Assembly (NCBI GenBank): GCA_050949505.1
Contig: JBMNFV010000001.1
Coordinates: 222,284-286,283, forward strand
Source of the DNA: Patescibacteria group bacterium
GTDB lineage: Bacteria > Patescibacteriota > Patescibacteriia > Patescibacteriales > UBA12465
Length of the DNA: 64,000 nucleotides
Direction of reading: 5' to 3'
Shown here: positions 33,538 to 60,438 of the stretch, piece after piece
Position numbering within the stretch: position 1 is the stretch's first letter
How the letters are laid out: each line of letters begins with the position of its first letter
The notes under the pieces: generated by a model
What the model saw: the letters and a program-made list of their open reading frames with translations, nothing else
Databases searched by the model: none
What the model was told of the DNA's origin: nothing
Position numbers and translations under genes: made by a program

Positions 33538-33941
33538 TTATTTTCTCTGACGGTGGGGCTCGGGGCAATCCGGGGCCAGCCGGTATCGGAGCAGTGATAT
33601 ATAATGAAAAAAAAGAAGTTTTAGCCACGATCTCCCAATATTTAGGAGAGACGACTAACAACCAAGCTGAGTATCATGCCTTGTTAGTTGCTTTAAAAAA
33701 AGCTCAAGAATTAGGAGCTGACCAAGTAGAGTGCTTTTTAGATAGTGAGTTAGTGGTTAAGCAGCTTAATTTAGAGTATAAAATAAAAAGCAAGGAATTA
33801 GCTCCCTTGTTTTTAGAAGTTTATAATCTTAGCTGGGAATTTGTGGGCATTAGCTTTACCCACATTCCCCGAGAACAAAATACGGTCGCTGACAAGTTAG
33901 CTAATCAAGCTATGGATAGAGGGGAGACTATTTCCCAGTAG
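33525..33941 (+). CDS. rnhA: Ribonuclease HI family protein
   Basis: 138 aa. SDGGARGNPGPAGIGAVI...NNQAEYHALLVAL...DSELVVKQL...NTVADKLAN covers the DEDD catalytic residues of type 1 RNase H. Overlaps recJ by 13 nt. Confidence 0.9.
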   Translation: MSKMIIFSDGGARGNPGPAGIGAVIYNEKKEVLATISQYLGETTNNQAEYHALLVALKKAQELGADQVECFLDSELVVKQLNLEYKIKSKELAPLFLEVYNLSWEFVGISFTHIPREQNTVADKLANQAMDRGETISQ

Positions 33942-35103
33942 GGGACCAGTGCCAAGGTTCTTGGGGATGAATTTCTGCCTTTAAGCCAACCGCGTTCATA
34001 CACTTGGTGAGGCTAGAGGAGTCATTAAATTTCCAGTCCATCTTCTGTCCATCTAAACGATTAATATCCATCGCTGTGCCGAGGCTATGGTTAGAACAGC
34101 AAGGAAAGGCAACCGGATTAGGATTCTCTCCGGCAGCTTTAGCAGCATCATAATTCTTTCTAAGTCTAACCTGCTCTTGAGGAGAGCGCCAGCCTTCACG
34201 GATGTAAAATAAACCCTGACCTTCATTTTCTTCTTTTACACATTCCATCGCTTGCAAATATTTACCCAAAGTCTCAGCTGCAACTAAGGTGTTGTCATGA
34301 CTTACTAATTCAATCCCTTCAGGGTAATTAGTGCCCAAAGCCTCACAAGTGGAATAGTCACCATTTCTTGAATCGTTACAAGCTTGTCGGTAATCAGCGT
34401 CAGTAATCTCTTCAATTTTTAGAGAAGTATTAAGGTCTAAAGGCTCAATTCCCGGGATAGTAATATTTTTTAAGTTAACCAGGTCGGGATTAATTAAAGA
34501 AAGTAGGGTATGGGAAGAGATCAGGATAATAAAACCTACAAAGCTGCCAGAGATTAAGTTTTTAGCTTTCTCAATTTTAGAGGCATCGCCGCGAGAGAGT
34601 AGCCAAAGCACTCCGCCGCCCATTAAGACCAGTGAGGTTATTATCCCTCCCGCAGCAATAGCATAGCGATAAATAGCCCTAATTAACAAAGTCATCCAAG
34701 GAATTTCACATTCTTCTCCCAAGGGACACTGAACGTCACTTAACTTTTCTAAACCAGGAATAGTTATTTCCAAGTCAGGGGCCTTGAACAATGGGGAGTA
34801 TTCGGGAGCAGAATAAGCAGAGACTTCGCAGCAACATTCATAAGAAGTATTCCACATAGCTGATCCTTTGGGAGCAGGAGACTCACAGTTAGCAGCGGGG
34901 AAACTAGTTAGACCCTTCGCTCGACAACCTCCAGTATATGAAGAACCAGTGTTACCAGTTACCGTTGATCCAGTAGAAAACTGTATTTTTTCCCAACTAC
35001 AGTTAGTGGCAGTCTGAGCTTGAGTAGGTTGAATAAAAAAAGACAAACAAGCAAATAACACTAAGGCAATTACTAAGAGAGTTTTTGATAAAAACTTAGA
35101 CAT
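33928..35103 (-). CDS. Secreted Cys-rich protein with VirB2/TrbC-like pilin module fused to M15 (VanY-type) peptidoglycan peptidase domain
   Basis: 391 aa. Signal peptide (cleavage near TQAQ), Cys-rich N-domain, then a two-helix hairpin at aa ~140-205 (IAAGGIITSLVLMGGGVLWLLSRGDASKIEKAKNLISGSFVGFIILISS). The C-terminal LAS/M15 motifs are SNHSLGTAMD (nt 34066-34095) and EPWHW. Confidence 0.8.
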   Translation of the reverse strand: MSKFLSKTLLVIALVLFACLSFFIQPTQAQTATNCSWEKIQFSTGSTVTGNTGSSYTGGCRAKGLTSFPAANCESPAPKGSAMWNTSYECCCEVSAYSAPEYSPLFKAPDLEITIPGLEKLSDVQCPLGEECEIPWMTLLIRAIYRYAIAAGGIITSLVLMGGGVLWLLSRGDASKIEKAKNLISGSFVGFIILISSHTLLSLINPDLVNLKNITIPGIEPLDLNTSLKIEEITDADYRQACNDSRNGDYSTCEALGTNYPEGIELVSHDNTLVAAETLGKYLQAMECVKEENEGQGLFYIREGWRSPQEQVRLRKNYDAAKAAGENPNPVAFPCCSNHSLGTAMDINRLDGQKMDWKFNDSSSLTKCMNAVGLKAEIHPQEPWHWSPTGK

Positions 35104-35140
35104 GGTTGAGAGTGAATAAAAATTATTTATTTTTTATCAC

Positions 35141-36289
35141 TTATTTTTTTAAATTATTTTCAGCATCATGCTGACAACAGACTAATCCCATATTGCAACC
35201 GCGCCCACCTTTATCAGATATACATTTTAGAGAATTATCTTTTAAATATTTATTTTGCAAGCACTTAGAATTATATTCTGTTCCACAAGGTTCATCTTCT
35301 TTACCACTCGTTCCTAAATAACATAAGTTATTATAGCAAAAACCATTATTACCTCCATAAGCAGCATTGCCAAGACCATAGGGATTGCATCTTTCTCCAG
35401 GGTCAGCGTTATCACAAACTTTAGGAATAACTTCAGAAGATGTAAGTTCTAAATCTCCACAATTATTATCTTTTTTTGTTTCAATTAAAGAAAAAATCAG
35501 ATTTTTATTTAATTCATTTTGAGCTAGAGTAATATCTCCACTATTAAATACTTCCTTGGTACTCGGACATTTTTCGCCAGCGTCACTGTTAACGGTAGAG
35601 TAAGAGTAGTAAGTGTTGTAGCCAGAGGCTCCTCGATATTCATAAACACAGCAAGTGGATCCTAGATGAGAACTACAAGCGTAGCCGTTAGTAGTTTTGG
35701 TGCAAAAGTAATTATCTTCACACATGACACTAGGGCTAGCGCACTCACCTTTAACTCCAATTGTTGAACCTGATTCAGGGTGGCAGCAAGCGACATCAGG
35801 CAAGATTACCTTGGTTTTTATAGCATCAAGTTCAGTTAGCTTGGGGTTGATGGTGTTTAAAATAACCCAAGAGAATAGCAGAATGGCGAGACCAATGAAG
35901 CTGCCGGAGATAAGTTTTTTAGCAGTCTCTATTTGCGAAGAACTGCCACGAGAGGTTAGCCACAATACTCCAGCTCCCATTAGAATCAAGGAAATAATAA
36001 TAGCGCTAGCGGAGACGGCATAGTTGAAAATACCAATAATCATTAGAGCGAGAAGATTGCTTTCCATGTCTCCAGAGGTCTTATTAAATGAGCCCACCTT
36101 AACAGCTTCCCCCGCTTTAATAAATCCAGGAATAGTTATTTCCGAAGTAAAGGTTAGGGGTTCAGCTGGGTCATTCTTAGCTAAACTAACTTGAGGAAGA
36201 AGGCAGATGAAGGAGGCGAGAACAATCAAGCCAACTAAGAGAAAAATTCTGGTTTTAAATTGTTTAGTAAGCTTATAGTTATTAAACAT
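35141..36289 (-). CDS. Secreted protein with VirB2/TrbC-like pilin module fused to a large Cys-rich C-terminal domain
   Basis: 382 aa. Signal/anchor, EITIPG box, then the hairpin YAVSASAIIISLILMGAGVLWLTSRGSSSQIETAKKLISGSFIGLAILLFS. This is clearly paralogous to the same module in 33928..35103. A Cys-dense domain of about 220 aa follows (CC, CxxC-like pairs). Confidence 0.75.
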   Translation of the reverse strand: MFNNYKLTKQFKTRIFLLVGLIVLASFICLLPQVSLAKNDPAEPLTFTSEITIPGFIKAGEAVKVGSFNKTSGDMESNLLALMIIGIFNYAVSASAIIISLILMGAGVLWLTSRGSSSQIETAKKLISGSFIGLAILLFSWVILNTINPKLTELDAIKTKVILPDVACCHPESGSTIGVKGECASPSVMCEDNYFCTKTTNGYACSSHLGSTCCVYEYRGASGYNTYYSYSTVNSDAGEKCPSTKEVFNSGDITLAQNELNKNLIFSLIETKKDNNCGDLELTSSEVIPKVCDNADPGERCNPYGLGNAAYGGNNGFCYNNLCYLGTSGKEDEPCGTEYNSKCLQNKYLKDNSLKCISDKGGRGCNMGLVCCQHDAENNLKK

Positions 36290-36305
36290 ATTAATTATCT
36301 TAAAG

Positions 36306-37082
36306 CTAATTTAAAGCATCGTGCCGCTCTATTTCCTCTAGGATATTGTCAAACAAGACTCTAAATTCTCCAGCGGGATAATAGCCAGTTAAAGGATAGC
36401 CGTTAATAAACCAGGTGGGTGTGCCGAGAATATCTAGAGCTAAACCATCTTCATAGTCTCTTCTAATTAAATCTAAATAGCGGCGCTCGTCATAACAGGT
36501 TTCAAATCTATCTAGGTCTAGGCCAATGATATCGCCCCAATAGAAAAGATTTTCTTTTAATTCCTCTCCTTTATCTTCTAGCAGGTCTTGCCCCAAGAAA
36601 ATAGCTTCATAACCTTCCCAGTAGCGACCTTGTTCGCCAGCGCAGCGCATGGCGACTGCCAGTTCAATGGAGTTATCGTGCAGAGGATAGTCCCTAATAA
36701 CCAGTTTAACGGTATCTTGATATTCGGCTAGCAGGGGGAGAATTTCTATAGCTGATTGACGGCAGTAAGGGCAGGCAAAGTCAGTAAACTCAATGATGGT
36801 AATCTTAGGGTCATTAGAACCTAGATAATAGCCCCCTTGTCCATAAAGAAGTTTTTCAAAGGTTTCGGTCGGGTCAGGAGTATTTAAAATTGTAGTTGGT
36901 TCGCCTTTAAGAATTTTACCTACCTCAGAGGTCACATAAATAGCAGAATAGATAAAAATGATAGCAAAAAAGGATAAGAAAATAATTAATAAAATTCCCC
37001 AAAACTTTTTATACCAAGGCCTGAGGGCGCGCTTATGCCGAGCCTTCATCTCAGCATATTTTATTCTTTCATCTAGACTCAT
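36306..37082 (-). CDS. Membrane-anchored DsbA-family thiol:disulfide oxidoreductase
   Basis: 258 aa. N-terminal TM (FWGILLIIFLSFFAIIFIYSAIYV) and a thioredoxin-fold active site FTDFACPYCRQ (CPYC at nt 36763-36774). First gene of the minus-strand operon. Confidence 0.88.
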   Translation of the reverse strand: MSLDERIKYAEMKARHKRALRPWYKKFWGILLIIFLSFFAIIFIYSAIYVTSEVGKILKGEPTTILNTPDPTETFEKLLYGQGGYYLGSNDPKITIIEFTDFACPYCRQSAIEILPLLAEYQDTVKLVIRDYPLHDNSIELAVAMRCAGEQGRYWEGYEAIFLGQDLLEDKGEELKENLFYWGDIIGLDLDRFETCYDERRYLDLIRRDYEDGLALDILGTPTWFINGYPLTGYYPAGEFRVLFDNILEEIERHDALN

Positions 37083-37109
37083 ATAATTAATTAAAAGATA
37101 AGTAATTAA

Positions 37110-37138: not shown

Positions 37139-37156
37139 CAAATTATATCATAAATT

Positions 37157-37924
37157 ATGAAAATAATCTCTTGGAATGTAAATGGCCTTAGGGCAGTGCT
37201 AAAAAAAGGCTTCTTAGACTTTCTCAACAAGGAGTCTCCAGATATTCTTTGCTTGCAAGAAATAAAGATTTCATCAACCGCCTTAGCGGAGTTAAAGTTA
37301 GAAATTCCTGGATACCAAGCTTATTGGCATTCAGCAGAGCGAGCTGGCTATAGTGGCACGGCTATTTTAATTAAGCAGAGCTTATCTGAAAAACATCAAT
37401 ACAGTGAAGGTCTAGGAGTAGAGAAGTTTGACTCAGAAGGCAGAGCGCAAATTTTAGAGCTGCCTCAATTTTATTTAATCAATGCCTATTTCCCTAATGC
37501 TAATCCTGAGCTATCTCGGCTAGGGTATAAGCTAGAATTCAATGAAGCCCTGCTAGCTAAGGCTAAGCAATTAGAGAAAAAGAAACCAGTGATTATCACT
37601 GGAGATTATAATGTTGCTCATCAGGAAATAGACTTAGCTAGGCCTAAGGAAAATGTTGGTAGTCCAGGTTTTACCCCTCAAGAAAGAGAGTGGCTGGATA
37701 AATTTATTGCCGCCGGCTTTATAGACACCTTTAGAGAATTACAAGGTGATCAAGTTAAGTATTCTTGGTGGAGCTATCGGAGCGCTGCTCGGGCGAGAAA
37801 TATTGGTTGGCGGATAGACTATTTCTGCGTATCACCAGCTTTGAAGAAGAAATTAATTCAAGCCGACATACTAGACCAGGTTTTAGGCTCTGACCATGCG
37901 CCCGTAATTTTAGAAATTAGTTAA
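37157..37924 (+). CDS. xth: Exodeoxyribonuclease III
   Basis: 255 aa. MKIISWNVNGLRA, LCLQEIK, GDYNVAH, SDHAPV motifs of the EEP/ExoIII family. Confidence 0.95.
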   Translation: MKIISWNVNGLRAVLKKGFLDFLNKESPDILCLQEIKISSTALAELKLEIPGYQAYWHSAERAGYSGTAILIKQSLSEKHQYSEGLGVEKFDSEGRAQILELPQFYLINAYFPNANPELSRLGYKLEFNEALLAKAKQLEKKKPVIITGDYNVAHQEIDLARPKENVGSPGFTPQEREWLDKFIAAGFIDTFRELQGDQVKYSWWSYRSAARARNIGWRIDYFCVSPALKKKLIQADILDQVLGSDHAPVILEIS

Positions 37925-37935
37925 ATTAAATTATT

Positions 37936-40377
37936 ATGTATCGTCATCAGGAAATAGAAAAAAAATGGCAACAGCACTGGGAGTCTAGCGGGCTTTATCG
38001 GGTTAGCAATGATAGTAGTCGCCCCAAGTATTATATTTTAGATATGTTCCCCTATCCCTCAGGGGCAGGACTACACGTTGGCCACCCTAAGGGCTATATT
38101 GCTACCGATGTATTAGCCCGGCTGAAAATGATGCAAGGCTATAATGTTTTGCACCCCATGGGCTTTGATGCTTTTGGTCTGCCAGCAGAGAATTATGCTC
38201 TTAAGAACAAGGTTCAGCCTAGAGTGAGCACCGCTGAGAATGTAAAAAAATACAAAGAGCAATTAGCCAAGTTAGGCTTTACCTATGATTGGTCTAGGGA
38301 AATAAATACTACTGACCCCAGCTACTACAAATGGACGCAATGGATTTTTTTACAAATGTTTAAACGAGGTTTGGCCTATGAATCTGAAGCACCAATTAAT
38401 TGGTGTCCCTCTTGTCAGACTGGTTTAGCCAATGAGGATTTAGAAGGGGGAGCCTGTGAGCGCTGTGGCACCTTGGTAGAACAAAAGCCACTCAGACAAT
38501 GGGTGTTAAAAATAACTGACTATGCGGACCGACTCTTAACTGACCTAGAGCAATTGCCAGCTTGGAATGAGTCAATTAAGGAGATGCAAAGAAATTGGCT
38601 AGGAAAAAGCCAGGGAGCGGAGTTAGAATTTTCTTTACAACTAGGAACAGAGATCGTCCCTGAAAAAAAGATTAAAGTATTTACCACCAGACTAGATACT
38701 ATCTTTGGCTGCACTTATGTAGTCCTGGCCCCAGAGCATCCTTTAGTAGCGACACTTAAGGATAAAATAGATAATCAAGAAGAGCTAGCTAACTATTTAC
38801 AAGCAGTTAAAAACAAAACCAATTTAGAGCGAACTGATTTAAATAAAGACAAGACGGGAGTGAGGTTGGTAGGAGTGCAAGCCCTTAATCCCTTTAATCA
38901 AGAGGCGGTAGCGGTCTTTGTTGCTGACTACGTCTTAGCCTCTTACGGCACAGGGGCAGTTATGGCGGTACCGGCTCATGATGAACGAGATTATGAGTTT
39001 GCTCAGAAATTTAACTTAACCATTAGACCAGTTATCTCTCCTTCGGCTAAGGAGTTAATTAATACTACGGAGGTTTATACCGCTGATGGCTACTTACATA
39101 ATTCCGGAGCATATTCAGGCTTAAGTTCTCAAAAAGCCCGAGAACAGCTAACCGCTTGGCTAGAAGAGAAGCAGTTAGGGAGCGAAAAGGTTAATTTTAA
39201 AATAGAAGATTGGGTGTTTTCCCGACAGCGCTATTGGGGAGAGCCGATTCCCTTAATCCATTGTCAGCACTGTGGGGTGGTGCCAGTTCCTGAGGAAGAA
39301 CTGCCCCTAGTTTTGCCTGAGGTGGCTAGTTATGAGCCAACTGGTACCGGAGAATCGCCGCTAGCAGCAATTAGCGACTGGGTTAATACTCAGTGTCCAA
39401 AGTGTGGTGGTCAGGCTCAGCGAGAAACTAATACCATGCCTCAATGGGCTGGTTCTTGTTGGTATTATTTACGTTATCTTGACCCTCACAATGACCAGGC
39501 CTTGGTAGCAGCAGATTTGGAAAAATATTGGTCGCCAGTAGATGTTTATGTTGGGGGAGCGGAACACGCTACTCGTCATCTAATTTATGCCCGATTTTGG
39601 CATAAGTTCTTATTTGACGAAGGGCTAGTTAGCCAGAGTGAGCCCTTTAAGAAATTACAACAAGTGGGCTTGATCATGGGCGAGGATGGAAGAAAAATGA
39701 GCAAGCGTTGGGGCAATGTTATTAATCCCGATGAAATAGTTAATGAATATGGAGCAGACTCTTTACGGGTCTATGAAATGTTTATGGGCCCCTTTGGACA
39801 GGCCAGCGCCTGGAGCACTAACGGCTTAAGTGGTTGTCGTAAATTTTTAGAAAAAGTAGTTAGCTTAAGTGAGGCTCAGGAGTTTGCAGAAGTTAAGGAG
39901 CTAAAAATTTTGCTTCATAAAACAATTAAGAAAGTGGAGCATGATATTGAAAACTTTGCTTTCAATACCGCCATCTCCGCTTTAATGATTCTGGTTAATG
40001 AATTGTTAGCCGCAAAGAGTCAGCAATCAGTTATCCCTCTATCTGCAGATGACTACTTAAAATTCCTACAAATTCTATCCCCCTTTGCGCCCCATCTTAG
40101 CGAGGAGTTAGCGGAGCGATTAGAATTGGGTCGGAGTATTTTTAGCACCACCTGGCCAGCTTATGATGAGAGCCTAATAGCGGCGGGACAGATTAATTTA
40201 GTGGTCCAAGTAAATGGCAAATTGCGGGGAACCTTAACGGTAGCTAGAGAGATAAGTGAAGCTGAGGCTTTAGCGCTAGCTCAGGCACAGCCAGGCATTA
40301 GTCGCTGGCTAGCTGACAAAGAATTGGTGAAAGTTATTTATGTGCCAGGGAGGTTGCTTAATTTAGTAATTAAATAA
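37936..40377 (+). CDS. leuS: Leucine--tRNA ligase
   Basis: 813 aa. HVGH (HIGH) and KMSKR (KMSKS) class I motifs, CP1 editing domain, and the LeuS-specific N-terminus YRHQEIEKKWQQHWE. Confidence 0.98.
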   Translation: MYRHQEIEKKWQQHWESSGLYRVSNDSSRPKYYILDMFPYPSGAGLHVGHPKGYIATDVLARLKMMQGYNVLHPMGFDAFGLPAENYALKNKVQPRVSTAENVKKYKEQLAKLGFTYDWSREINTTDPSYYKWTQWIFLQMFKRGLAYESEAPINWCPSCQTGLANEDLEGGACERCGTLVEQKPLRQWVLKITDYADRLLTDLEQLPAWNESIKEMQRNWLGKSQGAELEFSLQLGTEIVPEKKIKVFTTRLDTIFGCTYVVLAPEHPLVATLKDKIDNQEELANYLQAVKNKTNLERTDLNKDKTGVRLVGVQALNPFNQEAVAVFVADYVLASYGTGAVMAVPAHDERDYEFAQKFNLTIRPVISPSAKELINTTEVYTADGYLHNSGAYSGLSSQKAREQLTAWLEEKQLGSEKVNFKIEDWVFSRQRYWGEPIPLIHCQHCGVVPVPEEELPLVLPEVASYEPTGTGESPLAAISDWVNTQCPKCGGQAQRETNTMPQWAGSCWYYLRYLDPHNDQALVAADLEKYWSPVDVYVGGAEHATRHLIYARFWHKFLFDEGLVSQSEPFKKLQQVGLIMGEDGRKMSKRWGNVINPDEIVNEYGADSLRVYEMFMGPFGQASAWSTNGLSGCRKFLEKVVSLSEAQEFAEVKELKILLHKTIKKVEHDIENFAFNTAISALMILVNELLAAKSQQSVIPLSADDYLKFLQILSPFAPHLSEELAERLELGRSIFSTTWPAYDESLIAAGQINLVVQVNGKLRGTLTVAREISEAEALALAQAQPGISRWLADKELVKVIYVPGRLLNLVIK

Positions 40378-40383
40378 TTTATT

Positions 40384-50565: not shown

Positions 50566-50599
50566 ATAATAACCGCTTAAGTTAAGCGGTTATTATTTT
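50566..50599 (+). terminator. Strong hairpin terminator after the giant gene
   Basis: 14-bp perfect stem ATAATAACCGCTTA/TAAGCGGTTATTAT (50566-50579 / 50583-50596), 3-nt loop, short T tract. Confidence 0.65.
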
Positions 50600-50626
50600 G
50601 CCTAAAATCTCAGATTATTGTATAAT
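50598..50626 (+). promoter_or_regulatory. Near-consensus sigma-70 type promoter for the T4SS-like operon
   Basis: TTGCCT (50598-50603), 17-nt spacer, TATAAT (50621-50626), 29 nt upstream of ATG 50656. Confidence 0.55.
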
Positions 50627-51222: not shown

Positions 51223-51225
51223 TTT

Positions 51226-54093
51226 ATGAGAAAAATAAAAATTAGTAAAAGAAGTGTTAAAGTTTTTTCTCTAATCTTTTTAGTAGTTTTAGCCATACTC
51301 TTATTGATTCAACCAGTTCAAGCTGCCCCAGGAGATTGGGCAGGAAAATTTATAGGAGGGTTTTTAGGCTGGATTATTGGCGCTTTAGGAGTACTACTGG
51401 CTTTAATTATAGAGGCTTTAATATCAATAGCCCAATTTAATACTTTTGTTAATCATGAGGCGGTAATAGCGGGTTGGTCATTGGTGAGAAATATTAGCAA
51501 CATGTTTTTTGTGGTGGCCTTGCTGGTAATTGCTTATGCGACCATTTTAAATCAAGAGAAGTATAGTTATAAGACCTGGTTGCCAAAGATAATTCTAATG
51601 GCCATACTGATCAACTATTCTAAAACCATTTGTGGCGTATTAATCACAGTTGCTCAGGTGGCGATGTTAACTTTTGTTAATGCTTTTAAATCAATTGCTG
51701 CCGCTAACTTAGTTCAAGGCCTAGGAATCACGGAAATAGTGAAGTTGGCCGATAGTGCTGATGATTTAGGATTTTTTGCTATAGTTGGCGCTTATATCTT
51801 AGGACTCCTTTACGTCTTGGTGGCGATAGTGGTAATTACTACGATGTTAGCGATGCTAGTGATAAGAATGGTAATGATTTGGATCTATGTTGTTCTATCG
51901 CCATTAGCCTATATCATGGCGGCCTTCCCTGGAGCACAAAAGTATTCTGCTAAATGGTGGAGTGATTTTACTAAACACTTAATAGTGGGCCCAGTCTTGG
52001 CGTTCTTTATCTGGTTATCATTTAATGCTATGCAAAATGATAAGACAGTAGAAAAAGAGCTAGAATTTCAGGAAAAGAGCGCAACAGAATTGGCGGCGGG
52101 AATAGGCATGAAGGTTGAAGCAACTAACAAAAAAAATACTTCCAGTGCTCAGGAAATAGACGTCTTCTTGAAATTTATTATCGGCATTGGAATGTTGGTT
52201 GGAGGCTTACAAATTACTAATGGAATTGGTGGCGTGGCCGGATCAATTGCTGGCAAGGGAATGGCTAAGTTGCAAAAAGGAGCCATGGCAGTTGGCAATT
52301 GGGGCAAGCGCCGAGTGACGGGAACAGCCAAAGCCTTGGGACGAGGGGCGGTAGGGGCGGTAAACAAACCGGGAGTGAGAAGTGCTTTGGATAAAGTAGC
52401 GTCACAACGAGGAGTAGCAGGGTTTGCCTTGCGAGCCACCGGGGTAAGAAAAATGTCAGAAAGTGCTTTGATCGGTTTAGGCAAAAACAAGGCAGAAACA
52501 GAAAAGAAAGCAAAAGAAAAGGTGGAAGAGTTGAGAGGGGCGGGTGGATTTAGGACTTTAGCAATGAAAGCTTCTCGTGCAGGCTACACTCCAGAAGGAA
52601 GGGCAGTTAAGGCGGAAGCTAGAAAGATATTCCCTGTCCCAGTAGAGAAATTAAACAATCAAGCGGGAGCATTAGCAACAACAGATCCTAAGGTTTTAGA
52701 AGAAGCGCGCGCGCGTATTCAAAAGAATGATTATGGCAATTCAGATAATAAGCTAACCAAGTCAATGGCCGTATGGATAGGAAAAATGGGCTTAAATTTG
52801 GAAGAGCCGGGGATGGAGGGGGCTAAGAAGATGATAGAAACTGACATTGACTTAGCGGGAGCCTTTAAATCAGGAAGAAAGGACGCTGGCTTAACTGATT
52901 TTGTGGAGGTACTCAAAAAGGATGGAAGTAAATTGGGGGGAAGATATGCTGAAGGAAGAGAGTTGAGTCCAAGTGAGCTGGATAATTATTTAGGCAGAAC
53001 TTCCGGAACTCCACCATTTAGACCAGAGCAGACTGATGCAGAAGATGATCGATTGAATTATGGAGGAACTCCAGTTCCAGGATATCAGAAATATAATTAT
53101 CCCACAGTAGCGGGAGGTCAGGCGGTACAAAATATAGTGAATGCTCAACGTCAAAATCTGGAAGTAATAACAGGAACAAATGATCTAGAGTCAGTGGAAG
53201 AAACGAGAAATAGATTGCATGAGTTAAATATTAGAGATGGGGCTGACTATTTCCAAGATGAAGATAAGGTCAAGGAGGTATTTGCTGGAGCTAAAAAAGA
53301 TGTTAGCGAGAAGAGATTGGTCGAGAGGAGAAGCGAATCACCAGGCGATCGAGACTTTGATGAGGCGAGATTAACTGCCGAAGGTAGGGGAAATTTGGCG
53401 ATTAATGGCTTTGCTAGAGGACAAGAAGATTATGTGGGAGTTGATTTTTCCAAGCTAGGAGCAGAGCTGCAGGATACAATTATTAGAGGCCTAAAGGCAG
53501 GAAATGGCCTAAGCGATGCCCGAGGATTCACAACCACTGATCCTGGGTTGATAGGCAAACTGGCGAGCAGTGTTTCAGGAATTATTGGACAAGAGATAAG
53601 TCAGCTAAAGGGCAAAGGGGGTAATTTATCAAAGAGCGATAGTCGCCGTTTGGCTAATTTAGAGAGTGCTCAGGCAAAGCTAGATAATCCTAATGAGCTA
53701 GGAACTCTAGAGATGATCAACACTAGCGCTAAAGGATTTAAGAGCCCCAATCAAGTTAAAGAGACTATTATGCATGAAGACTTGCATGGGGCGGGAGTGG
53801 ATAGAGAAGATGTGGTAGACTTTACGGTACGCAGCACAGACTCTAGAGATATGATTTCTACTAGAAAAGAAGCTAAGCAAAGTCGTCAGTTCCAGCAAAA
53901 AATGTTAGCCAATTTAATGGATTTTCAGAAGAGGAATAATAAAGTTAAACCAACTAGGGATATAATTGCTAAGGAAAAAAGAGACCCAGTTTTAGCTAAG
54001 CAGTATAATATGCTAGATAAAAATATTAAATCTACCGCTAAAACGATTGATGACTACTTTAAAGTGATGATGAGAGAAAATAGAAATATCTAG
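51226..54093 (+). CDS. VirB6/TrbL/PrgH-like polytopic membrane protein with long hydrophilic C-terminal domain
   Basis: 955 aa. Signal-like N-terminus, about 6-8 TM helices over the first ~330 aa in a VirB6/TrbL-like arrangement, a Gly/Ala/Lys-rich linker, then a soluble region of about 550 aa containing HEDLH. The call rests on topology and operon position relative to the PrgI and VirB4 genes. Confidence 0.55.
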   Translation: MRKIKISKRSVKVFSLIFLVVLAILLLIQPVQAAPGDWAGKFIGGFLGWIIGALGVLLALIIEALISIAQFNTFVNHEAVIAGWSLVRNISNMFFVVALLVIAYATILNQEKYSYKTWLPKIILMAILINYSKTICGVLITVAQVAMLTFVNAFKSIAAANLVQGLGITEIVKLADSADDLGFFAIVGAYILGLLYVLVAIVVITTMLAMLVIRMVMIWIYVVLSPLAYIMAAFPGAQKYSAKWWSDFTKHLIVGPVLAFFIWLSFNAMQNDKTVEKELEFQEKSATELAAGIGMKVEATNKKNTSSAQEIDVFLKFIIGIGMLVGGLQITNGIGGVAGSIAGKGMAKLQKGAMAVGNWGKRRVTGTAKALGRGAVGAVNKPGVRSALDKVASQRGVAGFALRATGVRKMSESALIGLGKNKAETEKKAKEKVEELRGAGGFRTLAMKASRAGYTPEGRAVKAEARKIFPVPVEKLNNQAGALATTDPKVLEEARARIQKNDYGNSDNKLTKSMAVWIGKMGLNLEEPGMEGAKKMIETDIDLAGAFKSGRKDAGLTDFVEVLKKDGSKLGGRYAEGRELSPSELDNYLGRTSGTPPFRPEQTDAEDDRLNYGGTPVPGYQKYNYPTVAGGQAVQNIVNAQRQNLEVITGTNDLESVEETRNRLHELNIRDGADYFQDEDKVKEVFAGAKKDVSEKRLVERRSESPGDRDFDEARLTAEGRGNLAINGFARGQEDYVGVDFSKLGAELQDTIIRGLKAGNGLSDARGFTTTDPGLIGKLASSVSGIIGQEISQLKGKGGNLSKSDSRRLANLESAQAKLDNPNELGTLEMINTSAKGFKSPNQVKETIMHEDLHGAGVDREDVVDFTVRSTDSRDMISTRKEAKQSRQFQQKMLANLMDFQKRNNKVKPTRDIIAKEKRDPVLAKQYNMLDKNIKSTAKTIDDYFKVMMRENRNI

Positions 54094-54135: not shown

Positions 54136-55170
54136 ATGACTTATTTAGAAGAGTGTTTACAAGCGTTTAGAGAGTTGCCTGATTTTTTAAGGAATCAGGT
54201 GGATAGCCCTGAGGCTTTTCAGCGAATAACGGCCATAGAAGATGAGTATGGGGTGGATTTAAAGTTTTTAGTAATTTTATTGGCAATTGGCGAGCTTAGT
54301 TTTACGGAGATAGCCAACTATTTAATGGACAAGGAGGAGTTAGCCGAAGAGGATGCAATGGAAATTGAGGAGCAGTTGTCAGCCGAAATTTTTATAACCG
54401 GATTAGACACAGAGGCTTTAGACCAGGCTTTAAGGGAGGACGAATTTGATGACGCCTTAGAGGAGTCAGCGGGACTATTGTCCAGAGAAAGTATTTTAGA
54501 AATCATCCAGAAGGAAGTGGCCGAATATTTTAACGAAGGAGCAGAAAAGGAAAAAACAGAGCTTCTTAACAATTCCATTTTTTATGAATTTTCTCGGGAC
54601 GGTTCTTTTCAGGGTGAGATTGTTAAGGCTTTGCTAGCTAATCAGCAAGAAATTACCTCAAAGAGATTAAAGATCGGGGAGAAAGAAGGGGCGCCAACAA
54701 TTGCTAATTGGCTAGAAGATTTTTTTGAAGAGAATGGCGTGGAGGATTTTAATGATCTAGTTTTAATTCAATATCTCAATCATGGAGCTAATGTTAAAGG
54801 TTTGTCCACTGAAGACAAAGAGAAGGTAAAAAATCTCTTACGCGCTTATCGCAATCTTAGCTTTTTCCCAGATAGTTTAGCTAAAATTCCAATTGAAAAC
54901 TGGCAATTGATTCCTGAGCCAACGGAAAAAGGATTGCCATTAAGAGAAGAAAAGAAAACTTTAACCGCTAAGGGGCCAGTTGCTGCAAAGACTCAAGTGC
55001 CGAAGGAGCAACTCGGGGCGGAGAAGAAGTCTCAGCCCGAGGCAAAAAAGATGACCGCCACAGAGCGGCAGTTAGCAGAATTAGCGCAAGCGCTTGATAA
55101 TTATCCAGTTAATAGCTTGGAGCGCAAGGCAATTGAGCAAGAGATTAAGCGTTTGCGAAAAACTAAGTAG
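54136..55170 (+). CDS. Hypothetical acidic protein, paralogous N-terminal domain (copy 1)
   Basis: 344 aa. Its N-terminal ~85 aa align by eye with the next ORF (F..LP..LR...SPE....I..IE.EY..DL..LV). Lys-rich C-terminal tail. Confidence 0.55.
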   Translation: MTYLEECLQAFRELPDFLRNQVDSPEAFQRITAIEDEYGVDLKFLVILLAIGELSFTEIANYLMDKEELAEEDAMEIEEQLSAEIFITGLDTEALDQALREDEFDDALEESAGLLSRESILEIIQKEVAEYFNEGAEKEKTELLNNSIFYEFSRDGSFQGEIVKALLANQQEITSKRLKIGEKEGAPTIANWLEDFFEENGVEDFNDLVLIQYLNHGANVKGLSTEDKEKVKNLLRAYRNLSFFPDSLAKIPIENWQLIPEPTEKGLPLREEKKTLTAKGPVAAKTQVPKEQLGAEKKSQPEAKKMTATERQLAELAQALDNYPVNSLERKAIEQEIKRLRKTK

Positions 55171-55179
55171 TGATAAATA

Positions 55180-56775
55180 ATGTTTGATTATTTACAACAA
55201 TTTAATCGCCTCCCTAAAGAGTTGCGAGAAAAGATATCCACTCCAGAGATGATTAACATCATCTCTAAGTTGGAAGAGGAGTACCGTCTAGACCTAGCGG
55301 CTCTAGTGATGAAGGTGATGGTTAAGATAGTTAGCTGGCAAAACCTGGCCTTAACTCTAGTTGGCGAGTTTAATTTATCACAAACCGCAGCCGAATCTTT
55401 AGCGAAGAAGTTAAACGAGCAAGTATTTAGTCAGGTAGCTGGTCATTTAGGTTTAGAGTCTGCTAGTCCATCACTATCTAAAGAGGAGCAGGCAATTTTG
55501 ATTATCAAGAAATCAGCGATCAAGCTTTCTAGTAGTGAACTAGAGCAAAGGCTAAAGAGGATAATTATCACCTACCTTAAAGGAATTAGAGATAAAATTG
55601 CCATTCAGGACACCTTAGCCAAGTCAGTGGTCTATGGTGGCTTAAATCTACCAGAAGCAGAGATTCAAAAAATTATAGAACTGAGTGATAAATTTTTACA
55701 TTCTCCTGAAACGACAACCTCAGCAGTTGAGAGCAAAGTAGCTAGTCAGCCAGTTAGCAGTTCGCGCTTGCAAGAGATAATGGCGCAAGACTTATTAAAC
55801 ACGCCGGCAGAATATGACTTAAAGTCAGCCCTTCAAGAGCAAGGTCAGTTAAAGGCAGCTAGTCGGGAAACTCCCACCTTAGCCCCCTTAGACACTTCTC
55901 TGCAAGTCAAGGCACCAGACAAGCCAGAAACCTTAAAGTCTCCTGCTCAAGCTCAATCGCTACAGGCTCCAATTGAAGCGGAGAAATTAGCCCAACCTAA
56001 AGAAAGAAAGGCAATTGCGCAGCCAATTAAGCCTGAGAGCTTATCGCCAATTTCTCGTCCTGACAAGACCTTGGCAGAGGAACCGGTTAAGCCTACCGCT
56101 CCCCAGGCTAGTTCTCCGACTCCAGTGCCGACCTTGACTAAGCAGGAGTTAAAGTCAGTTCCAGATTCTCAGCAATCGGCTAAAGTCTCTAAGATGGCGA
56201 CAATGTTTGCACGGCTTAAATTTAAGCGAGACAAGCAATTAGCGCCAAAGAGTGAGGCTGAGAAAAAAGTTAGGTCAAATAAAGAGGCAGAAGCTTTATT
56301 ATCACGCCCTAAAGAACAAGTTAAGCCGCCGGCCAAGAAAGACTTAAGCTATCCCTTATCAGCTCCGGGCATTGCCGAGGCTCGTTCTCTGGCTTCCGCT
56401 GGACGACCAGCCACTAAACCGATAGTGAGAGATATAAAGCCCATGCCCCGATTGATGGGACCAATTGAGGAATTAAAGTATTTAGACTTGGAAAATTTCC
56501 GACGTTTAGGCAAGACTCCCGCAGAGATAGCTAATAAAATTATTGCGAAAATTAAATTGTTAGAAGGGGATGGTTATGATAGAATGATCAAAGGAATTCA
56601 GGCCTGGCGAAGCAGTCCAGTTAATGCCTTGTACCTAAAAATGGTTAAGGAAGCGATGGCGCAGGGCATTCCAGTAAAGAATTTAGCTAGCTATCATGAC
56701 AAACATCCCAATAAGTATTTAAGTGTAGCAGAAATAGAGGAAATTATAAGCCTAAATGCTAAGTTGATTTTATAA
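55180..56775 (+). CDS. Hypothetical protein, paralogous N-terminal domain (copy 2) with Pro/Lys-rich disordered linker
   Basis: 531 aa. N-terminal domain shared with 54136..55170, a central low-complexity P/K/A/Q region, and a conserved-looking C-terminal globular part. Confidence 0.55.
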   Translation: MFDYLQQFNRLPKELREKISTPEMINIISKLEEEYRLDLAALVMKVMVKIVSWQNLALTLVGEFNLSQTAAESLAKKLNEQVFSQVAGHLGLESASPSLSKEEQAILIIKKSAIKLSSSELEQRLKRIIITYLKGIRDKIAIQDTLAKSVVYGGLNLPEAEIQKIIELSDKFLHSPETTTSAVESKVASQPVSSSRLQEIMAQDLLNTPAEYDLKSALQEQGQLKAASRETPTLAPLDTSLQVKAPDKPETLKSPAQAQSLQAPIEAEKLAQPKERKAIAQPIKPESLSPISRPDKTLAEEPVKPTAPQASSPTPVPTLTKQELKSVPDSQQSAKVSKMATMFARLKFKRDKQLAPKSEAEKKVRSNKEAEALLSRPKEQVKPPAKKDLSYPLSAPGIAEARSLASAGRPATKPIVRDIKPMPRLMGPIEELKYLDLENFRRLGKTPAEIANKIIAKIKLLEGDGYDRMIKGIQAWRSSPVNALYLKMVKEAMAQGIPVKNLASYHDKHPNKYLSVAEIEEIISLNAKLIL

Positions 56776-56778
56776 GTT

Positions 56779-57213
56779 ATGCAGCAATTTACCGTTCCAC
56801 AATTTATTGATGTTGAGGCTAAAATTATTGGCCCGTTAACGGTCAGGCAGTTTTTGATTGTACTAGCAGCAGCCCTACTGGGAGGAATTTCTTATCGGCT
56901 TTTTGATTTTTCTCTATTTATCACCATTACCGTAATACTATTATTACTAGCCGCAACCTTTGCCTTTGTTAAAATTAATGCCCGTCCCTTTCATTTTTTC
57001 TTTTTAAATGTTTTGCAAACCCTGCGCCGTCCTCGGTTAAGATTATGGAGAAAAATTGATGCTGATCAACCACTAGAAGCAGTTAAGACCTATTCTAAAC
57101 CAGAGGTCCCGGTAGTGACTCATAAAGAATTCTATAAAAAATCACGGCTAGCTGAACTGGCCTTAGTGGTAGATACTCAAGGTAAATATAAAGGTGAGTC
57201 CGCAGATATTTAA
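56779..57213 (+). CDS. PrgI family (VirB3-like) T4SS membrane protein
   Basis: 144 aa. The N-terminus FTVPQFIDVEAKIIGPLTVRQFLIVLAAALLGGISY followed by a second TM helix is the characteristic PrgI-family pattern. It sits directly upstream of VirB4, as in Gram-positive T4SS operons. Confidence 0.75.
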   Translation: MQQFTVPQFIDVEAKIIGPLTVRQFLIVLAAALLGGISYRLFDFSLFITITVILLLLAATFAFVKINARPFHFFFLNVLQTLRRPRLRLWRKIDADQPLEAVKTYSKPEVPVVTHKEFYKKSRLAELALVVDTQGKYKGESADI

Positions 57214-57223
57214 TTTTTAAATT

Positions 57224-57901
57224 ATGGCTACTAAAAAATCCAATCAAAGCTCAGCTGCCTCCACTCAACAGTATTTAGATATAGCAGAAATTAAAGACAA
57301 TACCATTGTGCTAAAAGATGGCACTATTAGGGCAGTGTTATTAGCTTCTAGTATTAATTTTTCCCTAAAAAGTGAGGATGAACAAAATGCAGTAATTAGT
57401 GGTTATGTGCAGTTTTTAAATAATTTATCTTTCACCCTGCAAATAGTTATTCAATCTCGGGAGCTAGATATTGGTAGTTATTTAGAGTATTTAAAGGACA
57501 AAGAGAAGAAGCAGGTTAATCGTTTGCTTAAGGCTCAGACAGCTGATTATATAGAATATATAGATAGTCTAGCTTCGCTAGGACAGATAATGAATAAGCG
57601 GTTTTATGTGATTGTTCCCTATGACCCCCTCACTGATAAACATAAGAGCTTTTTTAGTTCTATCTCAGAAGCGCTTAGACCGGCGACGACTATCAAACTC
57701 AAGGAAAAAGTCTTTCGTAAATATCAGGATATGTTGGATCGTCGGGTGCAAAGTGTAGCGGGGGGACTAGAATCTATGGGAATTTCCGTTGCACGCTTAG
57801 ACACACAAAGTCTCATTGAGCTCTACTATAAAACATATAATCCAGAAACAGCTCGCAATCAGTCATTAGCTAATATTGAAGAGTTGCGAGTGGAGAACTA
57901 A
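57224..57901 (+). CDS. VirB4/PrgJ N-terminal domain encoded as a separate ORF
   Basis: 225 aa. YLDIAEIKDNTIVLKDGTIRAVLLASSINFSLKSEDEQNAVISGYVQFLNNLSFTLQIVIQS matches the N-terminal pattern of Gram-positive VirB4 homologues. It is in the same frame as the next ORF, separated by one TAA plus 9 nt. Confidence 0.65.
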   Translation: MATKKSNQSSAASTQQYLDIAEIKDNTIVLKDGTIRAVLLASSINFSLKSEDEQNAVISGYVQFLNNLSFTLQIVIQSRELDIGSYLEYLKDKEKKQVNRLLKAQTADYIEYIDSLASLGQIMNKRFYVIVPYDPLTDKHKSFFSSISEALRPATTIKLKEKVFRKYQDMLDRRVQSVAGGLESMGISVARLDTQSLIELYYKTYNPETARNQSLANIEELRVEN

Positions 57902-57910
57902 AAATTACTT

Positions 57911-59800
57911 ATGGTTAATTTTAAACAATCAGACAAGAAGAAAATAGATTTACAAGCGTCAGTTTTCTCAGGCAAAAAACCGGGAGCGCCCATTGAGCGA
58001 GACCCGCAACTAACCAGGGAAGTGATTGAGGAAGAAAAAGCCTTTCGTCGCGGAGTAGTGTCGGTAAAAGATATTATTGCTCCGGCTAGCTTGAAAGTGG
58101 ACACTAATCACTTGATGTTGGGCGGGAAGTTTGTCCGGACTATTTTCGTAATCAGTTATCCCCGTTATATTACCGTTGGTTGGTTTGCGCCGATTATTAA
58201 TTTAAATACCGCTTTTGATGTGGGGATGTTCTTTTATCCAGTCAAAAGTGCCATTATTTTAAAGCAATTAAAGAACCGGGTGGGAGTATTAGAGGCGCAA
58301 ATTATGTCTGACCATGAAAAGGGGGCCGCCCGAGACCCTTTACGAGAAACCGCTTTGCGCGATATTGAGTATTTACGCGATGCCTTAACCCAAGGAACAG
58401 AAAAGTTTTTTCAGTTCTCACTTTATGTCACTCTTTATGCTGATAATTTAGCAGAACTGGACCGCTTGTCAGATGAGGTAGAGGACATTTTTGGCTCCCG
58501 CTTAGTTTATTCACGACGAGTCTATTTCCAATCAGAGCAGGGCTTTAACTCTACTATGCCGTTAGGTAATGATGAGCTTTATATCACCTTTAACATGAAC
58601 TCTTCGCCCATTGCCTCGTCTTTTCCCTTTATTTCCAGCGAGTTAACCAGTGATGAGGGGATTCTTTATGGGATTAATCGCCATAATAATAGCTTAATAC
58701 TTTTTGATAGGTTTTCTCTTCAGAATGCTAATTCAGTAGTATTTGCTACTTCCGGAGCAGGAAAAAGTTATGCGATTAAGTTGGAGATTCTGCGCTCACT
58801 AATGCTAGGAACGGAGGTAATTGTGATTGATCCAGAGTATGAGTATAAGTACTTAGCGGAGGCAGTGGGAGGCACTTATATCAATATCTCACTGGCTTCA
58901 GAGAACAAGATTAATCCCTTTGACTTGCCGCGAGCAATTGGCCAAGATATGCGCCCCAAGGATATTATTCGTAGTGCAGTAATTACCCTTAAGGGCTTAG
59001 TGAGACTAATGATCGGCAATTTAAATCATGATGAGGATTCAATCGTAGATAGGGCTTTGCTGGAGACTTATGCGAAAAAGGACATCACTCCGGATGCGGA
59101 CTTATCTAAAATAGAGCCCCCTATTATGGCTGACCTAGAGCAAGTTTTGGATGGCATGGAAGGAGGGGCTGACCTAGCCTTACGCTTAAAGAAATATACA
59201 GAGGGAACTTTTTCAGGCTTGTTAAATAATCCTACCAATGTGGAGATGAATAATCAGCTGGTTTGTTTTTCAGTACGAGACTTAGAAGATGAATTGCGAC
59301 CCATTGCTATTTATACGATCATTAATTACATCTGGAATATAGTTAGAAGCGAAATGAGAAAGAGAATCCTGGTCATTGATGAGGCTTGGTGGATGATGCA
59401 ACACGAGGATTCGGCTAAGTTTATTTTCGCTTTAGTAAAACGCTGTCGGAAGTATTATTTGGGGGTAACTACTATCACTCAGGACGTTAACGACTTCTTA
59501 ACTTCTCCCTATGGGCAAGCGATTGTCACCAACTCTTCCTTGCAAATTCTCTTTAAGCAATCTCCAGCGGCGATTGAGCTGGTAAAAAAGACCTTCCTGT
59601 TAACGGAAGGAGAGAAGTTCTTATTATTAGAAAGTGGCCTTGGCGAAGGGATCTTCTTTGCGGGCAATAAACACGTGGCGATGAAAGTAGTTGCCTCTTA
59701 TACTGAAGATCAGCTAATCACCTCTGATCCGCGGCAACTCTTAGAGATTGAAGAGGCCAAAAAAGAATTCAAAAGAAGCCAGGCAGAAGCTGGCGACTAA
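57911..59800 (+). CDS. VirB4-family T4SS ATPase (middle and ATPase domains)
   Basis: 629 aa. IAPASLKVDTNHLMLGGKFVRTIFVISYPRYITVGWFAPIINL (VirB4 middle domain), Walker A ATSGAGKSYA, Walker B ILVIDEAWWMM, and C-terminal ITQDVNDF motifs. Confidence 0.9.
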   Translation: MVNFKQSDKKKIDLQASVFSGKKPGAPIERDPQLTREVIEEEKAFRRGVVSVKDIIAPASLKVDTNHLMLGGKFVRTIFVISYPRYITVGWFAPIINLNTAFDVGMFFYPVKSAIILKQLKNRVGVLEAQIMSDHEKGAARDPLRETALRDIEYLRDALTQGTEKFFQFSLYVTLYADNLAELDRLSDEVEDIFGSRLVYSRRVYFQSEQGFNSTMPLGNDELYITFNMNSSPIASSFPFISSELTSDEGILYGINRHNNSLILFDRFSLQNANSVVFATSGAGKSYAIKLEILRSLMLGTEVIVIDPEYEYKYLAEAVGGTYINISLASENKINPFDLPRAIGQDMRPKDIIRSAVITLKGLVRLMIGNLNHDEDSIVDRALLETYAKKDITPDADLSKIEPPIMADLEQVLDGMEGGADLALRLKKYTEGTFSGLLNNPTNVEMNNQLVCFSVRDLEDELRPIAIYTIINYIWNIVRSEMRKRILVIDEAWWMMQHEDSAKFIFALVKRCRKYYLGVTTITQDVNDFLTSPYGQAIVTNSSLQILFKQSPAAIELVKKTFLLTEGEKFLLLESGLGEGIFFAGNKHVAMKVVASYTEDQLITSDPRQLLEIEEAKKEFKRSQAEAGD

Positions 59801-59823
59801 ATTAATTATTAATTAATAATTAT

Positions 59824-60438
59824 ATGATGAGAAATAGAAAAGCCATTGGCATCTTGTTAATTTTACTAGGATTAATCATCATTGGTTTAATAGTATTTTA
59901 TTTATACAATACCCGAGAGACTAGAATGACTGAATTGCCAGTTATTCCGGGTCAGCCAGGGGAGGAAATCTCAGATGAACCTAGTAGTAATCCGGGTAAT
60001 GTAATTGCTGACTATCGCTCTTATGACTTAAGTCAGGTTAGTCCTAAGGCCGTAACGGCGGATGACTTAGGAAAGTTGGCGATGTCAGTCACTGAAAGGT
60101 TTGGCTCTTTTTCTAGTCAATCAAATTACAGTAATTTAACTGACCTAAAGATTATCATGACTGAAAGCCTAGGAACTTGGGTAGATACTTATGTAGGCAG
60201 CCTAAGAAAGGAGCATGGCAGCGAGTCATATTACGGAATAGTTACTAAAGCAATTAATTATCAAGTTTTAGAATTTGATGCTCAGGCTGGCCGAGCTGAG
60301 ATAGTCGTTTCTACACAGCGACAAGAAAGTACAGGGGAAATGTTTGGTGGTGACCCCTATAGCCAAGATTTACGGCTAGTCTTTTTGGAGGTAAATGGTG
60401 ACTGGCTATTTGATGCCGCTTATTGGAGCAAGGATTAG
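59824..60438 (+). CDS. Bitopic membrane protein, VirB8/PrgL-position candidate
   Basis: 204 aa. One N-terminal TM (AIGILLILLGLIIIGLIVFYLY) plus a C-terminal domain of about 140 aa ending VNGDWLFDAAYW. The architecture and position after VirB4 resemble VirB8-like NTF2-fold proteins. I see no direct sequence motif. Confidence 0.35.
   Translation: MMRNRKAIGILLILLGLIIIGLIVFYLYNTRETRMTELPVIPGQPGEEISDEPSSNPGNVIADYRSYDLSQVSPKAVTADDLGKLAMSVTERFGSFSSQSNYSNLTDLKIIMTESLGTWVDTYVGSLRKEHGSESYYGIVTKAINYQVLEFDAQAGRAEIVVSTQRQESTGEMFGGDPYSQDLRLVFLEVNGDWLFDAAYWSKD

Follow-up and report, generated by a model that had tools for sequence, protein, structure and literature searches.

A relaxase-less type IV secretion locus of a Falkowbacteria-like patescibacterium and its syntenic, lineage-specific surface-protein genes

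Introduction

When the genes for a DsbA-like oxidoreductase, two proteins carrying pilin modules, a giant cysteine-rich protein and the core of a type IV secretion system (T4SS) lie within some 27 kb of one another, do their products form one machine, or do they share no more than a stretch of conserved chromosome? The question is raised by positions 33928-60438 of a 64,000-nucleotide stretch (hereafter the window) of contig JBMNFV010000001.1, from a Patescibacteria group bacterium, where a first-pass annotation had recognised this combination amongst housekeeping genes; every open reading frame (ORF) on its gene list was found in its place. That annotation proposed that the DsbA-like protein, the pilin-module fusions, a TSP3-repeat protein with the adjacent giant, and the T4SS together constitute one disulfide-stabilised episymbiotic attachment or transfer apparatus, with an M15 peptidase as a substitute for VirB1; on such a model the giant would be an adhesin or distal structure. 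We regard this as unlikely as a whole, though parts of it find support, and consider it probable, if by no means settled, that the locus combines a Patescibacteria-type T4SS with separately transcribed surface-protein genes in one vertically inherited syntenic stretch. The system would then be of a kind already known, and its accessories, so far uncharacterised, would be specific to the lineage.

Southlakia epibionticum requires a cluster homologous to the T4SS genes (SEML1_0006-0019) in order to grow as an epibiont (Wang et al. 2023, PMC10633639), and the function of the T4SS in Saccharibacteria and other Patescibacteria is an open question (PMC10633639, PMC12857230, PMC11665869). The present locus offers two testable leads, hairpin-hydrolase fusions and a giant protein family, in a second major class, ABY1: the window appears to be a strongly syntenic chromosome stretch of a Falkowbacteria-like member of that class, its closest database relatives being labelled Patescibacteria or Candidatus Falkowbacteria. 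Homologous loci were collected by a scan admitting one genome per species, which identified relatives of the giant protein in 193 species, and 80 loci with 10-kb flanks were analysed; absences from the locus reported below refer to the ORFs of the 64-kb window.

A Patescibacteria-type secretion core

The secretion genes lie on the plus strand, and three of them are identified by profile. PrgI (VirB3-like; 56779-57213), with two transmembrane (TM) segments, matches Pfam PF12666 (E 2.1e-8; 35 bits, cutoff 27). The following gene encodes a 225-aa TrsD-like protein corresponding to the N-terminal part of VirB4 (57224-57901), which matches VirB4_plasma over positions 93-249 (E 3.6e-12) and the TrsD/TraD profile at 4.5e-7, below the cutoff of the latter, and whose orthologues are annotated as PF26593 TraC-like. 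The 629-aa VirB4 ATPase (57911-59800) belongs to the CD1110 family (353.9 bits on NCBIfam conju_CD1110, cutoff 325; P-loop_TraG, 2e-27) and contains Walker A (ATSGAGKS) and Walker B (ILVIDE) motifs.

Upstream, a 955-aa polytopic protein (51226-54093) comprises about eight TM segments in residues 1-331 followed by a 620-aa hydrophilic tail. It has no direct match in Pfam or NCBIfam, and a Pfam scan of 40 homologues returned one marginal match to TrbL; two homologues carry a precomputed TrbL_3 annotation, and hhalign relates the family (probability 99.5%) to a protein of a distant relative (locus L006, GCA_030617105.1) that itself matches TrbL at E 1.3e-4 (22.2 bits, gathering score 25.9). In its polytopic N-terminal domain and large hydrophilic C-terminal extension the protein resembles the extended VirB6 paralogues of Rickettsiales (reviewed in PMC12857230), but differs from them in that its relation to VirB6/TrbL is transitive and in the presence, in part of the family, of an HExxH motif. 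This motif, at residue 850 (approximately 53773-53787), falls within a conserved block, 'NSSA..K..DVKE..HE..HG.G', found in 25 of the 40 homologues, and may constitute a zincin-like site.

The gene after virB4 encodes o204 (204 aa; 59824-60438), which occupies the VirB8 position, consists of a TM anchor and a C-terminal alpha-then-beta domain, is always found between virB4 and radA, and has no match in Pfam, NCBIfam or PDB sequences. Three further proteins accompany the core, none of which matches a Pfam or NCBIfam family: o188 (50656-51222), a small membrane protein, acidic at its N-terminus and with two predicted TM segments, that is always encoded directly upstream of the VirB6-like gene, and the hydrophilic o344 and o531 (54136-56775), conserved proteins of the T4SS cluster that have in common an N-terminal domain of about 80 aa (30% identity, E 3e-9).

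In its sequence features this core matches the published chromosomal, relaxase-less T4SS of Patescibacteria, in which a monophyletic VirB4 clade derived from MPF-FATA systems is accompanied by TrsD, PrgI/VirB3, VirB6 and VirB2-like PF18895 proteins near virB4 (Quinonero-Coronel et al. 2025, PMC12102498), a relaxase or coupling protein (T4CP) is almost never present, 1,135 of 1,948 assemblies have VirB2-like pilins in the vicinity of virB4, and, in class ABY1, radA, recG and comF are found around the system, with ksgA (rsmA) common nearby (PMC12102498). The window has the same MPF-FATA-type VirB4, separate TrsD, PrgI/VirB3 and chromosomal place, a putative VirB6-like protein, PF18895 proteins within 20 coding sequences (CDS), no relaxase or T4CP nearby and the ABY1-type radA/recG/ksgA neighbourhood. 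It departs from the published systems in that its pilin-like proteins are of 380-390 aa, Cys-rich and domain-fused (one to an M15 peptidase) rather than placed in a pilin array, and in the addition of conserved o188, o344 and o531 and an upstream giant Cys-rich gene. The view that the combination had not been characterised holds only in part: the accessories are, as far as we could find, uncharacterised, but the relaxase-less T4SS with VirB2-like pilins is published, and experiments show it to be essential in Saccharibacteria (PMC12102498, PMC10633639, PMC12857230). In the portion of the PMC12102498 supplement searched, no DsbA, TSP3, VanY or pyruvate:/2-oxoacid:ferredoxin oxidoreductase (POR) Pfam accessions were found near virB4.

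The Gram-positive conjugation systems of pGO1/pSK41 (TrsC/D/E) and pCF10 (PrgH/I/J/K/L) likewise have PrgI and an ATPase divided between TrsD and a VirB4-type protein, with a bitopic protein encoded next; they also have a polytopic protein of VirB6 type, putative in the window, and no outer-membrane core. Unlike those systems, the window has no relaxase, T4CP, TrsG/PrgK VirB1-type hydrolase or PrgB adhesin, and it has VirB2-like hairpin proteins, which Gram-positive T4SSs lack. TrsD and VirB4, anchored by PrgI/VirB3 and joined by the VirB6/TrbL-like and VirB8-position proteins, would make a cytoplasmic-membrane translocon of MPF-FATA ancestry, and the absence from the window of a relaxase and of a coupling protein, the former already noted in the first-pass annotation, indicates that this is not a conjugation machine.

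Since VirB4, TrsD and PrgI of MPF-FATA type are found on Gram-positive plasmids and integrative conjugative elements, we also considered whether the locus could be an active or remnant element of this kind. Neither relaxase, VirD4 (T4CP) nor integrase is encoded in the window, there is no nearby tRNA or att flank, GC content is uniform along its length, and the genes hold an identical chromosomal position in at least 40 species, with VirB4 more conserved than LeuS; a mobile origin is accordingly scarcely credible, and was effectively excluded.

The degree of constraint, measured as median identity to the window protein across species, points to a core function for the motor, which at 85% is constrained more than an aminoacyl-tRNA synthetase (LeuS, 66.5%). 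TrsD follows VirB4 at 73%, with Xth at 63% and PrgI at 59%, and the lower values are those of DsbA (41%), the giant (39%), the TSP3 protein (38.5%) and the Cys-rich hairpin protein (30%). Such fast evolution of surface-exposed parts is as expected of a core machine with host-facing accessories.

Conserved gene order and a likely transcription boundary

Across the 80 loci the order pilin(s)-DsbA-xth-leuS-rsmA-TSP3-giant-o188-VirB6-like-o344-o531-PrgI-TrsD-VirB4-o204-radA is kept almost everywhere, with the flanking lepA, recJ, murJ and recG genes also syntenic. In 43 of 46 loci no more than 10 kb separate the giant gene from the VirB6-like gene downstream of it, and DsbA and pilin genes are present in 57 and 53 of 58 relatives, so that the modules of the proposed single apparatus stay within approximately 27-30 kb in almost all related species for which sufficient sequence is available. 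Such co-location, kept in relatives, is not due to chance. However, the housekeeping genes inside the same block (xth, leuS and rsmA; 37157-41229, plus strand, with leuS at 37936-40377), identified from ORF translations and Pfam annotation of orthologues, are conserved equally or better (58/58, 55/58 and 58/58, respectively). The linkage that the annotation had proposed to test across relatives is real, but is no stronger between the modules than with the interspersed housekeeping genes.

The junctions between neighbouring genes are more discriminating. Counting a junction as tight at 200 bp or less, and a partner as absent if not within 3 kb, rsmA to TSP3 is tight in 69/69 loci (partner absent in 5), TSP3 to giant in 70/72 (absent in 0), o188 to the VirB6-like gene in 47/50, and every junction from o531 to radA is tight. 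Giant to o188 is tight in 23/51 loci (partner absent in 10), with gaps of up to 7.3 kb filled by unrelated genes and, in five species (L061, L071, L074, L078 and L090), no T4SS gene within about 10 kb of the giant gene, and o344 to o531 in 24/28 (absent in 17), where the T4SS cluster is often split by genes for metK, ahcY, PfkB, an ABC transporter or a PEP-utilising enzyme (e.g. L009 13653-21490, L091 13528-22622 and L092 14151-15305). Insertions at these two points include GlnRS, peptidase S66, NUDIX, ABC transporter and SAM-cycle genes. The two loose junctions divide the region into the rigid blocks xth-leuS-rsmA-TSP3-giant, o188-VirB6-like-o344 and o531-PrgI-TrsD-VirB4-o204-radA, an arrangement which argues against a single apparatus in that unrelated genes separate its parts and the giant is tied to rsmA and not to the T4SS. 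Between the giant gene and o188, moreover, lies a perfect palindrome with a 14-bp stem (ATAATAACCGCTTAA/TTAAGCGGTTATTAT; 50566-50596), and just 3' of it a promoter-like plus-strand site agreeing with consensus (TTGCCT-17-TATAAT; 50598-50626); the sequence of the 50566-50626 interval makes it a likely boundary between the transcription unit of the giant and that of the T4SS.

Downstream of o204, following a gap of 23 bp in the window, is radA (60462-61808, plus strand), to which recG (62279-63934, minus strand) is convergent, and this neighbourhood invites a further reading, i.e. a ComB-like T4SS for DNA uptake, coupled to radA and recG, with the hairpin and giant proteins as unrelated surface proteins. 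The o204-radA junction is tight in 6/6 loci (gap of at most 28 bp, or overlap), comF, recG and radA lie near ABY1 T4SS loci with coordination suggested (PMC12102498), and H. pylori ComB supplies a precedent (cited in PMC11665869). Yet tight junctions also join unrelated genes, as in the 69/69 loci with rsmA next to TSP3, so that adjacency to radA says little; S. epibionticum cannot do without its T4SS but can do without comEC (PMC12857230); and no DNA-binding or ComEC-like component is present among the Pfam and NCBIfam matches of the cluster. We judge DNA uptake to be distinctly improbable.

DsbA and the interleaved POR genes

The minus-strand cluster of the window consists of DsbA and the two hairpin genes, and had been described as an operon of these three, a description that is correct as to gene content. 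The DsbA-like protein (36306-37082) matches Thioredoxin_4 (E 9e-23, 81.7 bits) and DSBA (E 2e-10) in Pfam, and a TM helix at residues 30-48 followed by CPYC at residue 104 indicates a membrane-anchored thioredoxin-fold oxidoreductase with an extracytoplasmic CxxC; neither a DsbB nor a VKOR partner was recognised in the window. The order in 47 of 50 relatives, however, is DsbA-PORgamma-PORdelta-PORalpha-pilin-PORbeta-pilin(VanY), with the genes for the four POR subunits placed amongst the others and start and stop codons overlapping (e.g. L001 5263-11107 and the upstream flanks of L011-L089, such as L013 422-4364). All four POR genes are gone from the DsbA cluster in the window and in L030, L044 and L084, and the compact DsbA-pilin-pilin arrangement is, as comparison of the loci indicates, a derived, secondary state. 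An ancestral dedicated operon of these three genes was rejected because of the interleaving, which also tells against the single apparatus.

Taken together, the pilin genes within a POR operon and the TSP3 gene fixed to rsmA make adjacency poor evidence of shared function at this locus, and they advise caution in streamlined, highly syntenic genomes generally, where adjacency, even operon membership, is weak evidence of a common function.

Cysteine content had been taken to link DsbA to its neighbours. The three exported proteins (the two hairpin proteins and the giant) contain 3.2-5.5% Cys, as against 0-1.6% in other ORFs of the window bar one, and this confinement of Cys enrichment favours their membership of one apparatus. 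The exception, an ORF at 1825-2298 (plus strand) encoding a lipoprotein-like product with a signal peptide, an LTAC lipobox and 15 Cys in 157 aa, is distant from DsbA, which fits a general-purpose role for the oxidase. (A 104-aa ORF on the minus strand, in all likelihood spurious, overlaps it.) The proposal that DsbA is the dedicated oxidant of the Cys-dense proteins is therefore not borne out: its link to them has no independent support, and both the POR interleaving and the distant Cys-rich ORF speak against it. A general extracytoplasmic oxidase that would act on the hairpin proteins and the giant, dedicated to neither, appears the better description.

VirB2-like hairpins fused to Cys-rich and enzymatic domains

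The two hairpin proteins (both minus strand) have 391 aa and 15 Cys (33928-35103) and 382 aa and 21 Cys (35141-36289). They match T4SS_pilin, PF18895, at E 8.9e-6 and 2.7e-4, respectively, and a hidden Markov model (HMM) of the hairpin built from relatives matches just these two ORFs in the window (E 6e-31 for 35141-36289), which upholds their description as the sole VirB2-like pilin modules there. Their TM segments, at residues 148-166 and 183-201 in one and 91-109 and 126-144 in the other, form the helix, short basic loop and helix arrangement of such pilins, and their hairpin cores are 47% identical, whilst the domains on either side of them show no relationship. From the distribution of Cys and the positive-inside rule, both of these domains are predicted to be extracytoplasmic in each protein. 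The genes lie 13-14 CDS upstream of virB4 on the opposite strand, inside the +/-20 CDS range applied in PMC12102498.

In the 391-aa protein a signal peptide, a small Cys-rich beta domain and a disordered linker precede the hairpin (residues ~135-204) and an M15/VanY domain (~236-391). An AlphaFold2 (AF2) model from a 14-sequence alignment has a mean pLDDT of 70, places the hairpin helices at 135-169 and 174-204, and reaches pLDDT ~90 in the C-terminal domain, which Foldseek aligns with VanXY, VanY and LdcB structures (4mus, 5hnm, 4mph) at probability 1.0. Pfam VanY is matched at E 1.5e-6 (28.5 bits, cutoff 25), and the zinc-ligand motifs SxHxxGxAxD and ExxH (H, D, H) are intact and conserved in 12/14 homologues. 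The assignment of the domain to M15 is firm, the fold and zinc-ligand motifs being those of the peptidoglycan carboxypeptidases VanY/VanXY/LdcB (MEROPS M15B); what sets the protein apart from that family is its fusion to a VirB2-like hairpin and a Cys-rich N-domain. The exact architecture is rare (15 homologue clusters among 5.8 billion proteins). The 382-aa protein, which has orthologues in 53/58 relatives, ends instead in a Cys-rich domain of ~220 aa with no recognised fold.

Neither protein falls within the mature size of a pilin (~70-120 aa), and in this they are typical of their family, the complete hairpin ORFs of related loci (n=73) having a median of 359 aa, 18 Cys and N- and C-terminal extensions of 73 and 185 aa. 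Like VirB2/TrbC pilins they combine two hydrophobic helices, a short basic loop and a PF18895 match; unlike them they are 3-4 times larger and have the hairpin flanked on each side by a globular domain, Cys-rich or enzymatic. Some relatives encode a third hairpin protein (L003 11114-12187; L084 2060-3220; P0013) in which an SLT_3 (lysozyme-like) or 3D domain replaces VanY, matched below threshold at E 9e-4 and 9.5e-4, respectively, and different wall-hydrolase domains thus appear to have been swapped onto the same pilin-like hairpin. No relevant report of pilin-hydrolase fusions or of PF18896 turned up in the literature, and, as far as we could find, fusions of a hairpin to a wall enzyme have not previously been described.

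The distant relative L006 bears on two readings at once. Its hairpin proteins, of 630, 359 and 410 aa, are encoded directly within the PrgI-TrsD-VirB4 operon, and the 410-aa protein also matches TrbC/VirB2 PF04956; because of this arrangement a link between pilin module and T4SS is reasonable and has independent support. For the single apparatus, the hairpins within a T4SS operon and the recurrence of hairpin-peptidoglycan hydrolase fusions are favourable, but L006 has this T4SS with its hairpins and neither giant nor DsbA within 10 kb. Of the connections drawn in the first-pass annotation, that of the pilin modules to the T4SS remains plausible, whereas those of DsbA and the giant have no independent support.

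The TSP3-giant pair

The TSP3 gene (41264-41869, plus strand) encodes a TM-anchored protein with Ca-binding-type repeats (TSP3_bac in Pfam, E 2.9e-14), and directly precedes, as had been reported, the gene for a 2,878-aa secreted protein (41898-50534, plus strand) that begins with a signal-like helix. It is always found between rsmA and the giant gene, and in 67/69 loci no more than 43 bp separate it from the latter. The giant contains 92 Cys (3.2%), a helical N-terminal domain and stretches resembling carbohydrate-binding modules (CBMs), to which its sequence similarity is marginal. At least 237 clusters of close relatives, all of 2.2-2.95k aa, are 37-48% identical to it, and a search with the N-terminal domain collected 1,056 clusters (50% identity), with lengths of 2.4-3.0k aa in almost every case. 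An alignment of 12 sequences has some 90 invariant Cys, full-length relatives have 85-126 Cys (an even number in 50/63), and C-x6-C occurs in 11 copies as against 2.7 expected in shuffles, often as C-x5-G-C-x-E-aromatic. The family, which exceeds 1,000 sequence clusters, is conserved in length, disulfide-rich and without known fold or function, and its gene takes up about 1% of a sub-megabase genome.

A profile search with the giant returned nothing significant among PDB sequences, BLAST against itself disclosed no long internal repeats, and the AF2 model of residues 38-700 (46 homologues) was poor (pLDDT 54), rendering its Foldseek matches meaningless; nothing relevant to the family turned up in the literature. 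Compared with the giant by BLAST, neither the hairpin proteins nor the TSP3 protein had a domain in common with it; for the hairpin proteins this is a further point against the single apparatus. VirB6-like homologues were also sought outside the giant-bearing lineage, and the P0108 and P0095 loci both proved to carry the giant. A stretch at the giant C-terminus, 'IDWGDG...HxFYHYY...DNWG' (WGDG), resembles a PKD domain, with no Pfam match.

A proposed mechanism and its weak points

In the arrangement that we favour, namely a Patescibacteria-type T4SS alongside independently transcribed surface-protein genes, the likely clients or partners of the translocon would be the VirB2-like hairpin proteins, each crossing the membrane twice with its Cys-rich N- and C-domains outside the cell. 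The active-looking M15 (VanY/LdcB-type) peptidase could then remodel the cell's own wall or that of a host at the site of the machine. Wall remodelling at a T4SS is the task of VirB1/PrgK, for which the annotation had nominated the M15 protein as a substitute; the intact fold makes this plausible, and the SLT_3 and 3D domains of the sister hairpin proteins fit a VirB1-like role. If so, the hairpin-hydrolase fusions suggest how a pilin-bearing monoderm T4SS copes with peptidoglycan without VirB1. TSP3 and the giant would be a conserved surface-protein pair, probably a disulfide-braced adhesin or scaffold, expressed with xth-leuS-rsmA and not with the T4SS.

Several considerations weigh against this reading. 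In profile searches PrgI, VirB4, DsbA and VanY pass their cutoffs, but the window hairpins, at 26.1 and 21.4 bits, remain just under the PF18895 gathering score of 26.6 (homologues, 29-43 bits), and the VirB6-like protein, lacking a direct match, is VirB6/TrbL-like by transitive evidence only; this assignment is weak, as is that of o204 as VirB8-like from position and topology, so that the VirB3/VirB4/VirB6-type core recognised initially is secure for PrgI, TrsD and VirB4 but not for the remainder. To our knowledge, 350-390 aa is far above the size of any pilin shown to polymerise, and the hairpin of the fusion proteins may be a mere membrane anchor. The relatives of the M15 domain, VanY and LdcB, act as carboxypeptidases on stem peptides and do not open the wall, which leaves equivalence to VirB1 uncertain. 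Finally, in 43/46 species the giant gene keeps its place upstream of the T4SS genes, and this could still reflect function.

A bolder form of the mechanism, which we hold to be quite unlikely, would have the T4SS pull hairpin proteins from the membrane to build a filament or patch that displays M15, SLT-like and 3D enzymes and Cys-rich modules towards the host, with TSP3 and the giant as an adhesin platform, the whole being a new kind of enzyme-decorated T4SS organelle with which an epibiont would grip the wall of its host or break through it.

Further observations

Many metagenome-assembled genomes with this Patescibacteria-specific locus (L014, L015, L017, L018, L039, L057 and others) bear the titles 'uncultured Gammaproteobacteria bacterium', 'Bacillota bacterium' or 'Saccharimonadales', which are probably mislabels. 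The window also contains a second secreted peptidoglycan hydrolase, a LysM plus M23 peptidase ORF at 3718-5040 (minus strand) that is unlinked to the T4SS.

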